Source: an uncultured delta proteobacterium (GTDB lineage: Bacteria; Myxococcota_A; Polyangia; Polyangiales; B10-G4). From it: a stretch of DNA of 64,000 nucleotides. This document shows, piece by piece, positions 33,001-36,000 of the stretch. Each line of letters starts with the position of its first letter. Positions within the stretch are counted from its first letter, which is position 1. Made by a program: the position numbers. Location of the stretch: positions 256,001 through 320,000 of the forward strand of contig CAVSGI010000027.1 in NCBI GenBank assembly GCA_963727445.1. The letters run 5' to 3'.

Positions 33001-36000
33001 CCTACGCACCAGCTGGGGCTTCGGTATCCGCTGGATCTCGCCGCTGGGCCCGCTGCGCTTCGAGTGGGGTATTCCGTTCATTCGGCGACCGAACGAACAG
33101 GACATCAACTTCCAGTTCACCATCGGCAACTTCTTTTAGCGCAGGCGGGAGCGGGCACGTGGCTGTAGCCGTGCATGGCCGGAGCGGACGGCAGTCCGCG
33201 CAGCTGCACGGGTACAGGCTCGTCGACGCATCGGGCGCAGCCCGATGCTAGTCGACGGGAGCGGGAACGGGCACGGGAGCGGGAGCGAGAACGGGAACGG
33301 GCACGTGGCTGTAGCCGTGCATGGCGGAGCGGACGGCAGTCCGCGGAGCTGCACGGGTACAGGCTCGTCGACGCATCGGGCGCAGCCCGATGCTAGTCAA
33401 CGGGAGGGGGAACGGGCACGGGAGCGGGAACGGGAGGGGGAACGGGAACGGAGCGTGAACGGGAGCGGGAGCGGGAGCGGGAGCGGGAGCGGGAGCGGGA
33501 GCGGGAGCGGGAGCGGGAGCGGGAGCGGGCACGGGAGTGTGCGGCTCGGTGGGTCGTCTGATCGTGTTTCTTGGTCATCGCTGAGACCCCTTCTGGGTTG
33601 GGAAAGGGGTCTCAGCGATGACCAAGAAACACTCTGATTCGATGATTCATCACGACTTGCGCGTCTGGCAGCGGGCGCGAGCCCTCGTGCAGCTCGTGTA
33701 TGCGAACCTGCCGGCCGATGCGGAGCTTCGGTCGCAGGTGAAGCGGGCTTCGACTTCGGTCGGGGCGAACATCGCCGAGGGTTGCACGCAGAGCTCGCGG
33801 GCGATGCGGCGCAAGCACTACGAGATCGCCCGCGGTTCGGCCGTGGAGACCGTGGCGTGCTTCGAGTTGGCGGAGGCGACGGGGGATCGGCTACCGGTCG
33901 AGGAAGTCCGCAGCCACGGCGCGGCGATCGCCGCGATGCTCACCAGGATGCTGCGGTGAAGCACTCTGAGCCCGGAGGGGTTTCCCTCCGGGCTCGGGTG
34001 GCTCAGCGATGGATCATGCGAAAGAGGGTGGCGGCGGCATGATCGAAATGGTCCTCGGCGGCGCTGCACTCCGCCGCGCTCAGATACCCCCAGGCCACGG
34101 CGATGCGCAGCGCCTGTCTGGCTTCTCTCGCTGAGTTCATCGCGACCGAGAGCCGCTCGGGCCGATGCCCTTTTCGCCCCCACTCGCCCTCGGCCGCGTT
34201 GAGCGCCGCCGAGCTGGCGGCGCGCCGCAGCTGCGACGCGAGGTCGCGGTCTTCGTGTTGGATCCTTTCGGCCAGTGGCCGGGTGGCCCCGATGGCTTCG
34301 AGGAGGATGTCGTGTACCAGCTTGCTCATGAGGGGTTGCTCCTTCCGCCCACGTCAGGGGCTTCGCCCCGCCCGAAGGGCCCCTGACGTGGGCGGAAGGA
34401 GCAACGCCGGGCGTTGGCCGCAACCTCGCGACTTGCGACCGCATGGCGGTCACAACGCCGGGCGTTGGCCGCAACCTCGCGACTTGCGACCGCATGGCGG
34501 TCACAACGCCGGGCGTTGGCCGCAACCTCGCGACTTGCGACCGCATGGCGGTCACAACGGCGGCCGTTGGCCGCAACGTCGCGACTTGCGACCGCATGGC
34601 GGTCACGATGGCGCGCGTTGGCCGCAACGTCGGGACTTGCGACCGCATGGCGGTCACAACTGCGGGCGTTGAGCGCAACGTCGCGACTTGCGACCGCATG
34701 GCGGTCACAACGGCGCGCGTTGAGCGCAACGTCGCGACTTGCGACCGCATGGCGGTCACAACTGCGGGCGTTGAGCGCAACGTCGCGACTTGCGACCGCA
34801 TGGCGGTCACAACTGCGGGCGTTGAGCGCAACGTCGCGACTTGCGACCGCATGGCGGTCACAACGGCGCGCGTTGGCCGCAACCTCGCGACTTGCGACCG
34901 CATGGCGGTCACAACGGCGGCCGTTGGCCGCAACGTCGCGACTTGCGACCGCATGGCGGTCACAACGGCGCGCGTTGGCCGCAACGTCGCGACTTGCGAC
35001 CGCATGGCGGTCAACTAACTCCGATGGGAATGATTTTGCTCCCGTTCCCAGTCCCCACTCACCCACCCAGTCCCAGACCCAAGCGCAGCTTGGGGTCGAG
35101 ACGACGGGAACGCGAACGGGAGCGAGAACGGGAGCGAGAACGGGAACGAGAACGGGAACGGGAACGGGAACGGGAACGTGGCTGTAGCCGTGCATGGCGG
35201 AGCGGACGGCAGTCCGCGGAGCTGCACGGGTACAGGCTCGTCGACGCATCGGGCCGAGCCCGATGCTAGTCAACGGGAACGGGAACGGGAACGGGAACGG
35301 GAGCGGGAACGGGAACGGGAACGGGAACGGGAACGTGGCTGACCGGGCACGGCGGACGGGAACGGGACCGGGAACGGGAACGGGAACGGCGTCAACGGGA
35401 ATGAGAACGGAAACGGGGACGGGCGCTGGCGTTCTTGGCGCTTTCCACTATGTTCGGCGCCGTGTCGGAGCTGCTTTCCATGTCCGCGGGGGAGATCGCG
35501 GACGCCATTCGGGCTGGGGATGTCTCGCCGCTCGAGGCGGTCCGGACGCACATCGAGCGCATCGAAGAGGTCAATCCGCGCATCAACGCCGTCGTGGCTC
35601 ATCGCTTCGAGGACGCCCTCGCGGATGCGCGACAGGCGACCGAGCGGCTCGTGCACGCCGATCCCGAACGCCTCGGCGCCTTCTACGGGGTGCCCTTCAC
35701 CGCGAAGGAGCTGGTCGCCGTCGAGGGGCTGCCCAACACCGCGGGCTGCGCCAAGCGACGCGACATCATCGCCGACACCGACGCGCCCCTCGTTCGCCAC
35801 ATGAAGGACGCTGGCGCCATCTGCGTCGGCGTCACCAACGTCTCCGAGGCCGGGCTCTGGCTCGAGACCCACAACACGCTCTACGGGCGCACCAACAACG
35901 CCTACTCCCCCGATCACATCCCCGGCGGCTCGAGCGGCGGCGAGGGCGCGATCATCGGCGCCGGCGGTAGCCCCATCGGCATCGGCGCCGACAGCGGCGG

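Follow-up and report, generated by a model that had tools for sequence, protein, structure and literature searches.

Organization of the locus

The window considered here is a stretch of 64,000 nt, in which one copy of a composite gene cassette lies between the genes of BamA and an amidase, on contig C27 of the genome under study (G000). The parts of each copy follow the order of a hexamer satellite, a 29-bp palindrome, gene A, a central hairpin, gene B on the opposite strand, a 27-bp palindrome and a second satellite. Genes A and B are the only reading frames between BamA and the amidase with family support, and no transposase is encoded in the block, in agreement with a preliminary description of this DNA. 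The features listed below are on the plus strand unless indicated otherwise.

The left flank begins 20 nt past the BamA stop codon with the first copy of a 96-nt structured mini-repeat, el90 (33159..33253; 97.9% identical to copy 2 by blastn-short). A short (GGGARC)n tract, recognized by TRF and sequence inspection (33255..33301), separates it from el90 copy 2 (33305..33400), which is 100% identical to the copy at C6:404870 and has a folding energy of -58.5 kcal/mol (z -5.3). Then comes the left hexamer satellite (33401..33538), consisting of (GGGARC)n followed by (GGGAGC)n, where TRF gave a period-6 tract at 33401-33529 and a regular expression extended it up to 33538; its G-rich strand is the sense strand of gene A. 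The left palindrome (33564..33632; -59.7 kcal/mol) is a perfect 29-bp stem with arms at 33564-33592 and 33604-33632.

Gene A (33618..33959, 113 aa) and gene B (34003..34329, minus strand, 108 aa) converge on the central hairpin located between their stop codons (33966..33997, no strand assigned; -40 to -46 kcal/mol in all five copies known in this genome). The right palindrome (34335..34405, minus strand) has a 27-bp stem with arms at 34335-34361 and 34379-34405 and energies of -69 to -74 kcal/mol in four copies. A hairpin at the right end had been described earlier with a stem of 22 bp; the hairpin itself was found again, its stem measuring 27 bp at -69 kcal/mol, and the left palindrome and the central hairpin, which had gone unmentioned, were added to it.

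Twelve 51-nt repeat units form an array (34402..35013; TRF) that follows the right palindrome and precedes the right spacer (35019..35105). The spacer carries the motif (a/g)acc(c/a)(a/g)agcgcag directly before the right satellite in all copies; it is 87% identical between the C27 and C6 copies by blastn-short, and a related motif precedes the genes of another sequence type, C. The right satellite starts with a (GGGARC)n tract oriented like the left one (35104..35178; TRF), continues through el90 copy 3, oriented like copies 1 and 2 (35178..35273; 97.9% by blastn-short), and finishes with a second part (35272..35423; TRF) some 12 nt short of the amidase ORF and its TTG start (35435). The el90 repeat is confined to the C27 block (three copies) and the C6 block (one copy), with one weak partial match on contig C11 (blastn-short). 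Of the five copies, C27 and C6 alone have the 51-nt array, with 12 and 7 units, respectively, so that the earlier report of such an array in two copies holds. In the whole genome, 36 arrays of a period near 51 were found, 15.8 kb in total, and since the array of the cassette belongs among them, it is taken as a secondary insertion.

The Rfam scan gave no rRNA match in 33000-35600 and only sub-threshold generic hairpins at the locus (microRNA precursors; mraW with 27.7 bits against a cut-off of 50). The scan for sigma-70 promoters returned 0 sites, and the terminator scan returned one, within gene B, which is no more than in shuffled sequences. The only public DNA run that covered part of the stretch (a share of 0.14; no RNA run was listed) gave contigs mostly about 150-170 bp long at a depth of 2-4, the longest listed being 335 bp, and one joint within the repeats, from 34860 to 35277; neither excised or circular forms nor strain-level polymorphism were seen.

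The two genes

Both products were assigned to the four-helix-bundle family PF05635/TIGR02436, which bears out the earlier identification of two convergent 23S_rRNA_IVP-type genes of 113 and 108 aa. Gene A matches PF05635 with E 8e-21 (74.7 bits, cut-off 33.8) and TIGR02436 with E 1.8e-19 (70 bits, cut-off 24), and its nearest solved structure is 2GSC (E 1.3e-5). Gene B matches the same profiles with E 2.4e-10 (41 bits) and E 8e-12 (45.3 bits), above the curated cut-offs. The partners are only 21.5-23.6% identical in the family alignment, and in the tree gene B belongs to a clade other than that of A. A second in-frame ATG of gene A, at 33642, would give a product of 105 aa; in two further copies, C25 and C14b, a short ORF out of frame starts from the first ATG and ends with ATGA at this second ATG.

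Between intact copies other than the C27-C6 pair, at Ks of 0.5-1.4, Ka/Ks was 0.03-0.09 for gene A and 0.08-0.15 for gene B. The C27-C6 pair, with Ks of 0.01-0.04, is too recent for this ratio (0.65 for B on 3 differences). Both genes are thus under strong purifying selection in the intact copies. Such selection in every intact copy equally fits a gene beneficial to the host or a selfish one.

Palindromes and hairpins

Gene A has its ribosome site (AAGGGG), its ATG (33618) and its first five codons within the 3' arm of the left palindrome. In the mRNA of gene B, the 3' arm of the right palindrome contains the ribosome site GGAAGGAG, 9 nt before the ATG. Their folding energies range from -55 to -74 kcal/mol across the copies. 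In seven sequences of the left palindrome, 11 of the 29 pairs were changed on both sides and none on one side, with 97.1% of cells paired, and none of 500 shuffles reached this covariation; for the right palindrome, 3 of 28 pairs were changed on both sides and, again, none on one.

Among 39 distinct start-site hairpins of the PF05635 family, 989 Watson-Crick pairs, 1 sense-strand G-U pair, 8 A-C pairs and 23 other mismatches were counted. Sense-strand G-U pairs, as sought for a stem acting at the RNA level, were not in excess in this set (1 against 8 A-C), and the near-absence of wobble pairs indicates that the stems are kept perfect as DNA and are not wobble-tolerant.

The left and right palindromes are unrelated to each other in sequence and also differ among the module types. 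The right one is the counterpart of the closing stem of a leader of about 170 nt that precedes type-C genes. Searches of G000 with blastn-short found both palindromes at cassette loci only, and none without genes. The central hairpin has a compensated change in the C14b copy and a counterpart in the congener of this organism, G001; it is probably a two-way terminator without a T-run.

Copies of the cassette in the genome

Five copies of the cassette were found in G000 by whole-genome tblastn and blastn. Compared with the C27 copy, genes A and B are 100% and 98% identical at C6:405268, 91% and 93% at C25:75836, and 94% and 81% at C14:396276 (C14a). The fifth copy, at C14:127901 (C14b), has decayed: both genes are split across two frames and the right palindrome is deleted. 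The core DNA of the C27 and C6 copies is 99.3% identical; in the remaining pairs, the identity is 81.7-87.5%. Despite this closeness, C27 and C6 already differ in their satellites, in the 51-nt array (12 and 7 units) and in the number of el90 repeats (3 and 1). Purifying selection has kept the genes intact in four copies, the fifth being in decay.

Tracts of (GGGARC)n in the same orientation flank all five copies on both sides, and homology among the copies stops inside these satellites. The neighbours identified with Pfam are BamA and the amidase at C27, a HEAT-repeat protein and a MiaB-type radical-SAM enzyme at C14:396 kb, and a serine hydrolase and PurM at C14:128 kb; at C6 they are a CheA-type kinase and an ORF with no Pfam match, and at C25 two ORFs, again with no Pfam match. 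The preliminary description had reported four copies of 81-95% DNA identity, framed by (GGGAAC)n and placed between unrelated genes. The multiple copies, the framing and the unrelated surroundings were all recovered; the count rose to five with the decayed copy at C14:127.9 kb, and the core identity is 82-99%.

Empty sites and insertion

Comparison with a congener was made with G001 only, a fragmented assembly of 590 contigs. The clearest case is the C14:396 kb site. In G001 (contig C304), the stop codon of the HEAT gene is followed by about 50 bp and MiaB, cassette and satellite being absent; the same junction in G000 holds about 1.34 kb of extra DNA, and the flanks align at 75-89%. Two modules of G001, L018 and L019, are located directly behind stop codons, and the orthologous sites in G000 (C21:489090 and C5:161670) carry neither module nor satellite. 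In another genus, genome G009 has a gene pair with satellites where G066 and G047 have abutting convergent genes without a satellite.

The other sites are less clear. At the C27 site, the BamA contig of G001 ends 128 bp past the stop codon, the amidase has other upstream genes, and synteny is broken. PurM, the neighbour at C14:128 kb, was not found in G001 with the query used. The orthologues of the C25 and C6 neighbours in G001 have different neighbours and no cassette, and these are not clean empty sites.

The block occupies permissive sites between genes, immediately past stop codons, and these comparisons show that satellite, cassette and satellite are gained or lost as a single piece. The earlier reading of a mobile module is supported in this part, as the block is an insertion relative to the HEAT-gene/MiaB junction of G001. 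Since three empty sites in G000 and G001 and two in the other genus are free of satellite, the satellites either arrive with the block or grow afterwards, and the proposed landing in pre-existing (GGGAAC)n microsatellites is weakened.

Neither terminal inverted repeats nor a target-site duplication were found at the outer junctions of the five blocks or in the filled and empty C14 sites, the missing duplication having been noted before. The sequence TGAACGGGG was considered as a target or an end and rejected: it is present at three outer junctions (C14a of G000, L018 and L019 of G001), with a similar one at C6, and is absent at C27, C25 and the G009 loci.

A non-autonomous element could be moved in trans by a structure-specific enzyme, for instance a Y1 (IS200/RAYT-type) homologue that recognizes single-stranded hairpins formed by the terminal palindromes. 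Both ends carry near-perfect DNA palindromes, with Watson-Crick compensation only and no G-U excess, and G000 has four weak Y1-transposase homologues (PF01797, 23-37 bits) that could act in this way. IS200/IS605-type elements are likewise not known to leave a target duplication. One enzyme would, however, need to read many hairpins, because the palindromes are mutually unrelated and vary with module type; moreover, they occur at five loci only, with no gene-less copies, no Y1 homologue lies near any cassette when the coordinates are compared, and the moved block extends past the palindromes to include the satellites. We regard this explanation as very unlikely.

Satellites and single-gene modules

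In the 9.47 Mb of G000, TRF detected 92 tracts of period 6 that are 48 bp or longer. All 16 PF05635 genes of this genome, which fall into four sequence types, have an upstream period-6 tract, an association beyond chance; types C and D possess their own units, (GTTGGC/GTTCGC)n and (GGATTC/GGAGTT)n, as well as their own start-site stems. Among loci fetched across the order, 88 of 114 family ORFs had a period-6/12/18 tract within 450 bp upstream and 41 of 114 had a stem of at least 14 bp across the start, the 114 being those with at least 450 bp of upstream sequence, from genomes rich in copies and hence not independent, with L046 and L063 representing one duplicate locus and a few frameshifted genes counted twice. 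Up to 500 bp away from a family gene, repeats of period 6/12/18 made up 20.8% of the sequence, as against 2.1% at distances above 700 bp in the same loci. The framing by microsatellites had been presented as a trait of the two-gene unit; as single PF05635 genes are built in the same way, with satellite and palindrome, it does not distinguish that unit.

In eight genomes, 26 convergent pairs were found, and the partners in the 22 measurable ones are 21-52% identical. According to the tree and the loci, gene A has a type-C gene as its partner in G001 and is also found there on its own. The pair consists of two different modules set tail to tail and is not the basic unit, and a fixed gene pairing is not supported.

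The proposal that A and B form a toxin-antitoxin-like or DGR-type (Avd) functional pair is favoured by two small genes being together, as they are in 5 of 5 copies in G000, and on a family shared with Avd, as stated in the accessible text of PMC10053308. The genes are, however, convergent and not an operon, they have the same fold, and neither has a toxin domain. The sole reverse transcriptase of the genome, a single PF00078 match, is on another contig (C1:31930), no such ORF and no pair of template and variable repeats were seen in the block, and the earlier statement that only one reverse transcriptase and no DGR are present is correct. Because gene A has a partner from another clade in G001 and occurs there without any, and both types are also known as solo genes, an obligate couple is unlikely; the functional-pair proposal as a whole seems to us scarcely tenable.

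In the explanation put forward earlier, the two-gene block recombines between (GGGAAC)n tracts; it would loop out as a circle and integrate into another tract. The identical unit and orientation around all five copies and the end of inter-copy homology within the satellites agree with this, and el90 on both flanks at C27 suggests exchange between the flanks. Possible targets exist, since a regular expression found 54 (GGGAAC)n tract loci in G000, 10 of them at cassettes, but many of the solo tracts look coding by eye, being in frame and encoding linkers of the Gly-Thr or Gly-Asn type. Where the two flanks are related, the satellites across the order are mostly direct (21 against 3 inverted); in the genomes with many copies, however, units differ between copies and flanks, and in 20 of 45 two-sided cases the satellites of the two flanks are unrelated. 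Loss through flanking repeats should also leave one tract, and the empty sites (C304 of G001; C5:161670 and C21:489090 of G000; G066 and G047) have none. On balance, this route seems unlikely. The same (GGGARC)n unit in all five copies of G000 also fits homology-guided integration, and recombination between the flanking direct satellites is possible as a step of excision or duplication.

It may also be supposed that A and B are host genes, for example of defence or stress, under an on/off or dosage switch made of satellite and palindrome, with copies arising by ordinary duplication. Low Ka/Ks (0.03-0.15) in the intact copies besides the C27-C6 pair, the sequestration of both translation starts, and quickly length-changing satellites upstream of every family gene would suit such a switch. 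Yet satellites are also found downstream, outside the ORFs, they change in 6-bp steps, and they are not obviously between promoter elements, the sigma-70 scan having given 0 sites. Congeners differ, at unrelated sites, in whether a block is present, PF05635 copy numbers reach 29-32 in some genomes, and one copy in G000 is decaying. A switch would be compatible with mobility, and as a full explanation it is decidedly improbable in our opinion.

Nature and possible spread of the cassette

Summarizing these data, we find it rather likely that a composite selfish cassette without a transposase, built from two PF05635 modules, is present in five copies, the C27 locus being one of them. Each module would comprise a fast-evolving hexamer satellite, a near-perfect palindrome whose gene-side arm holds the ribosome site and/or the start codon, and a small gene; two modules would be set tail to tail and share the central hairpin. 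With both translation starts buried in stems of 27-29 bp, expression should be under tight control, and protein synthesis might require either a transcript initiated within the palindrome or a stem that has been cleaved. RNase III, the enzyme that cleaves the stems of intervening sequences in rRNA, would be the obvious candidate here, and perfect 27-29-bp stems may be suitable substrates. The proteins A and B may be oligomeric nucleic-acid binders that act on the palindromes or satellites of their own element.

The copying route we can only infer. Host recombination or repair would copy the block without any enzyme encoded by the element, and the direct satellites might let it loop out or be copied. 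A tentative possibility is that a copy breaks within its satellite, which would be fragile, and becomes joined at a break in the chromosome; this would give satellites on both sides in direct orientation and no target duplication and would make a satellite at the target unnecessary.

A broader and more speculative view, which we hold to be rather doubtful, is that widespread and undescribed transposase-free mobile cassettes have small PF05635 genes as their cargo and perhaps as their active factor. The palindrome, perfect as DNA, would originate from the 5' end of the gene itself and the hexamer satellites would be grown or carried at the borders; the four-helix-bundle protein would bind these structures and enlist the replication or repair machinery of the host, so that the block is copied into breaks located behind stop codons. 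The intervening sequences of rRNA would, in this view, be a special case, with rRNA as the landing place.

The literature searches, which covered sources other than subscription-only papers, found no description of such cassettes, and the one considered here is apparently a case of an undescribed and widespread kind of selfish gene cassette. PF05635 is, to our knowledge, among the commonest small-protein families and has no known function outside retroelements. For this family, self-contained blocks of satellite, palindrome and gene, which exist in one- and two-gene forms and come and go between sister species, would offer a testable frame. We know of no explanation for the origin of rRNA intervening sequences, to which the blocks may tie the family. 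As sources of local genome instability, they may also explain a class of fast-changing intergenic satellites and assembly breaks in myxobacterial genomes. The palindromes over both starts, the swapping of partners and the satellite-free empty sites could serve as handles on the spread of DNA without an enzyme of its own.

Comparison with known systems

The closest known system is the 23S rRNA intervening sequence (IVS) that bears an ORF. In Coxiella burnetii, the IVS has 428 nt and contains an S23p ORF, reported in the accessible text of PMC4990558 as decaying and untranslated. According to the same part of that source, the IVS is regarded as a short selfish element gained by horizontal transfer, with a small gene of the PF05635 family; long stems, at which RNase III cuts, delimit it, and it encodes no mobility enzyme (PMC4990558). 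The cassette likewise has a small gene of this family, long stems and no mobility enzyme, whereas its genes are under purifying selection, unlike the decaying Coxiella ORF in that account (PMC4990558). The cassette also differs from an IVS in its location between protein-coding genes (BamA and the amidase) instead of a 23S rRNA helix and in having two genes along with hexamer satellites. Each gene start has a local palindrome as its stem, and the ends of the element do not pair, the satellites being direct and not complementary.

Avd is the accessory protein of diversity-generating retroelements, where it is a partner of nucleic acid and reverse transcriptase. It belongs to the same four-helix-bundle family as A and B, as far as the accessible text of PMC10053308 describes it. 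In contrast to these retroelements, the cassette is devoid of an adjacent reverse transcriptase and of template or variable repeats. It differs from type II toxin-antitoxin systems in that its genes are convergent and of the same family, the partner varies and solo genes occur, and from insertion sequences and MITEs in the absence of terminal inverted repeats and target-site duplication. As regards REP/RAYT systems, the palindromes of the cassette are restricted to five loci, and the four weak PF01797 matches are elsewhere in the genome, with no linkage seen. Like the cassette, REP/BIME and MITE-type repeats are multi-copy, intergenic, palindrome-rich, enzyme-less and clustered with other small repeats; the cassette is distinguished from them by carrying conserved protein genes that are under selection.

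Organization of the block

The 2.3-kb interval between the BamA gene (30242-33139) and the amidase gene (from 35435) contains, besides the convergent four-helix-bundle genes A (33618-33959, plus strand) and B (34003-34329, minus strand), no family-supported genes. Its left side begins with two copies of el90, a 96-nt structured mini-repeat (33159-33253 and 33305-33400) embedded in (GGGARC)n, and continues with a long (GGGAGC)n tract and a perfect 29-bp palindrome (33564-33632). A central hairpin (33966-33997) separates A from B. To the right of B lie a 27-bp palindrome (34335-34405), twelve units of a 51-nt repeat (34402-35013), a spacer and a second (GGGARC)n field with the third el90 copy (35178-35273).

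Both proteins score above the cut-offs of PF05635 and TIGR02436, and 2GSC is the sole solved structure related to them by sequence. Membership of the Avd/IVS-protein family suggests that A and B may be oligomeric nucleic-acid binders.

Copies in the genome

Whole-genome searches revealed five copies of the cassette (C27, C6:405268, C25:75836, C14:396276 and C14:127901). The preliminary description had correctly recognized a multi-copy unit and had counted four; the fifth, at C14:127901, is decayed, with A and B each divided between two reading frames and the right palindrome lost. Core identity is 99.3% between the C27 and C6 copies and 82-88% in the remaining copy pairs. The placement between unrelated genes, also reported there, is borne out by the Pfam matches of the neighbours: BamA and an amidase (C27), a HEAT-repeat protein and a MiaB-type enzyme (C14:396 kb), a serine hydrolase and PurM (C14:128 kb), an ORF without Pfam match and a CheA-type kinase (C6), and two ORFs without Pfam match (C25). 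Among the intact copies, the recent C27-C6 pair being left out, Ka/Ks is 0.03-0.09 for A and 0.08-0.15 for B (Ks 0.5-1.4), and therefore both proteins are maintained. On the whole, the earlier observation is confirmed with corrections, and its interpretation is partly supported.

Differences between C27 and C6 reveal a very fast turnover of satellites and secondary repeats. The el90 element consists of two hairpins and, apart from one weak partial match at C11:34859, is confined to the satellite fields of these two blocks (C6:404870-404965), always in one orientation and with 98-100% identity; it multiplied in C27 after the C27/C6 duplication. Arrays with a period near 51 number 36 in the genome (15.8 kb in total, at least two sequence families), including that of the window and those at C8:78131-78868, C6:73846-74841, C4:23121-23551, C12:178306-179003 and C10:249874-252271. 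Two of the arrays landed within cassette blocks, one family is built on the palindrome GTGACCGC...GCGGTCAC, and two units have folding z values of -2.7 and -3.5.

Many solo tracts of the (GGGAAC)n type, inspected by eye without gene calls, appear to be part of open reading frames, where they would encode low-complexity linkers of the Gly-Thr, Gly-Asn or Glu-Thr type that follow signal or membrane segments (for example C10:552351-552626, C5:94660-94971, C21:713990-714265 and C14:387505-387678). BamA itself contains (GTGE)n close to the N-terminus (window 30600-30700). A perfect (GGGAAC)48 at C14:205510-205797 is accompanied by no four-helix-bundle gene; on its flanks a different repeat, cttgatggggacggtctacacttttcaactttcggct, occurs in both tandem and inverted copies.

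Filled and empty sites

The block is gained and lost as one piece. In the congener (G001, C304), about 50 bp separate the stop codon of the HEAT-repeat gene from the MiaB-type gene, and this site holds no satellite; at C14:396 kb, between flanks of 75-89% aligned identity, the genome of the window has about 1.34 kb extra, composed of satellite, cassette and satellite. Conversely, two modules of another sequence type (type C) start, with their satellites, directly after stop codons in the congener, and at the orthologous sites in the genome of the window (C5:161670 and C21:489090) both module and satellite are absent. In another genus, a pair with both satellites (G009) sits exactly where two genomes (G066, G047) have two abutting convergent genes, and a third (G039) has nothing more there than short remnants of tracts and a small dispersed repeat of another kind.

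Since the empty sites are free of satellites, the latter either are part of the inserted block or form together with it, and insertion does not require a tract already present at the target. The mobility route proposed earlier, recombination between the microsatellites, is thereby weakened. Plain homology-guided integration is possible, as is movement by a trans-acting hairpin-specific enzyme; four Y1-transposase homologues are present in the genome, all of them weak matches. We tentatively consider a copying route in which host functions would copy the block, and a copy broken within its satellite would be joined into a break. Such break-and-join copying would leave direct satellites on both sides without target duplication and would require no satellite at the target; direct satellites could in turn let the block loop out or be copied. 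In our opinion, this route is conceivable rather than probable.

In three independent blocks (C14:395904, and L018 at about 1040 and L019 at about 1058 in the congener), the outer left junction carries the string TGAACGGGG, which either overlaps the upstream gene's stop codon or comes immediately after it. It was not seen at the C27, C25 and G009 loci, and the C6 junction (C6:404795) has GTGAACGGGGG. The remnant site in G039 (C40:4553-4678, L162/L163) carries a dispersed repeat of about 90 nt, with three more copies in that genome (57-89 nt, 85-89%) and one in G009 (90%); intergenic sites of this sort gather several kinds of small repeats.

Palindromes at the start sites

In the left palindrome, the ribosome site of A (AAGGGG), its ATG and its first five codons all fall within the 3' arm; in the right one, the 3' arm on the B mRNA includes the ribosome site GGAAGGAG before the ATG of B. 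Folding energies range from -55 to -74 kcal/mol. The congener has the same left palindrome, but built from a different sequence. Over seven left palindromes, both sides have changed at 11 of 29 pairs and one side alone at none, 97.1% of cells being paired, a level of compensation reached by 0 of 500 shuffles; within the genome of the window, 3 of 28 pairs of the right palindrome are compensated. The palindromes are thus conserved via compensatory change. A count over 39 distinct start-site hairpins from the family gave 989 Watson-Crick pairs, one sense-strand G-U, eight A-C and 23 other mismatches. Judged by these sequences, the stems look like DNA-perfect palindromes and not like wobble-tolerant RNA helices. 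No Rfam family was found for the block, nor did a scan of it find a sigma-70-like promoter.

If transcribed in full, the palindromes would block translation of A and B, and expression would need transcripts starting inside the palindrome or cleavage of the stem. Such cleavage, by RNase III, is described for the stems of rRNA intervening sequences with the same gene family (PMC4990558).

Single-gene modules and the make-up of pairs

The two-gene pair is not the basic unit. All 16 PF05635 matches in the genome (five A, five B, three type C, three type D) have a period-6 satellite upstream, at 31-350 bp or, where the 51-nt array intervenes, at 526 and 775 bp; these 16 tracts are among the 92 of that kind in 9.47 Mb. 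The repeat unit is (GGGAAC)n for A, its complement (GTTCCC)n for B, (GTTGGC/GTTCGC)n for type C and (GGATTC/GGAGTT)n for type D. Type-C genes are preceded by a conserved leader of about 170 nt that shows covariation and has the ribosome site in its closing stem; the right palindrome of the cassette is a short version of this stem. Type D has a 28-bp palindrome that starts at its ATG.

Type-C leaders (C9:186230-186445, C9:187530-187740 and C11:136690-136890; L013 and L016-L019 in the congener) have AAGGAG as the ribosome site and display compensatory changes between the two species. The type-D modules (C9:916339-917139, C9:923922-924722 and C12:56265-57065, minus strand) consist of a left part of about 130 nt with its own long inverted repeat, the satellite, the palindrome and the gene. 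Their shared sequence opens with gacgcggagctga, which at both C9 copies provides the upstream gene with its stop codon; these copies lie 7.6 kb apart in a duplicated region.

The family is present in 27 of 61 sampled genomes of the order, that of the window included, with up to 32 copies per genome. For 114 family ORFs, the fetched loci extend 450 bp or more upstream. Of these ORFs, 88 have a tract of period 6, 12 or 18 within 450 bp upstream and 41 have their start covered by a perfect stem of 14 bp or more, both counts including one doubly fetched locus and a few frameshifted genes taken as two ORFs. Repeats occupy 20.8% of the sequence up to 500 bp from a family gene, compared with 2.1% farther than 700 bp away in the same set of loci. 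Related tracts on both flanks are direct in 21 cases, inverted in three and both in one; flank tracts are unrelated in 20 cases, and in 68 units at most one side has a tract. Elsewhere in the phylum, hexamer tracts accompany the gene in 8 of 23 loci (G071, G086, G087, G092, G109, G110, G130 and, in short form, G053), some others have period-7, -20 or -21 repeats instead, and most of the best-scoring canonical members outside the order have no such repeats. In five draft genomes (G001, G022, G035, G064, G019), very many family genes lie 100-300 bp from a contig end, which fits satellites and repeated cassettes breaking short-read assemblies; draft copy numbers are therefore probably underestimates.

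Convergent pairs number 26 in eight genomes. Partner identity is 21.5-51.8% (22 measurable pairs), and therefore partners are never two copies of one gene. In the congener, gene A (72% identical to that of the window) has a partner of the type-C clade, and a solo A also occurs downstream of a (GGGAAC)n tract. In our reading, each pair arose when two modules became joined tail to tail, and the resulting block then spread as a unit; the partners would not be a co-evolved couple.

Comparison with known systems

The toxin-antitoxin-like or Avd-like (DGR) role suggested in the preliminary description is not upheld, as the cassette failed the tests for both. In the literature outside subscription-only journals, no account of satellite- and palindrome-bounded four-helix-bundle cassettes was found, and the locus is an instance of an apparently undescribed cassette family. 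New here are the five-copy composite form with two genes, the exchange of partners between congeners, the Watson-Crick-only compensation of the palindromes, and the satellite-free empty sites with their bearing on the microsatellite-recombination model. The closest described system is the ORF-bearing 23S rRNA intervening sequence, from which the cassette differs in that it is not located in rRNA and its two ends do not pair.
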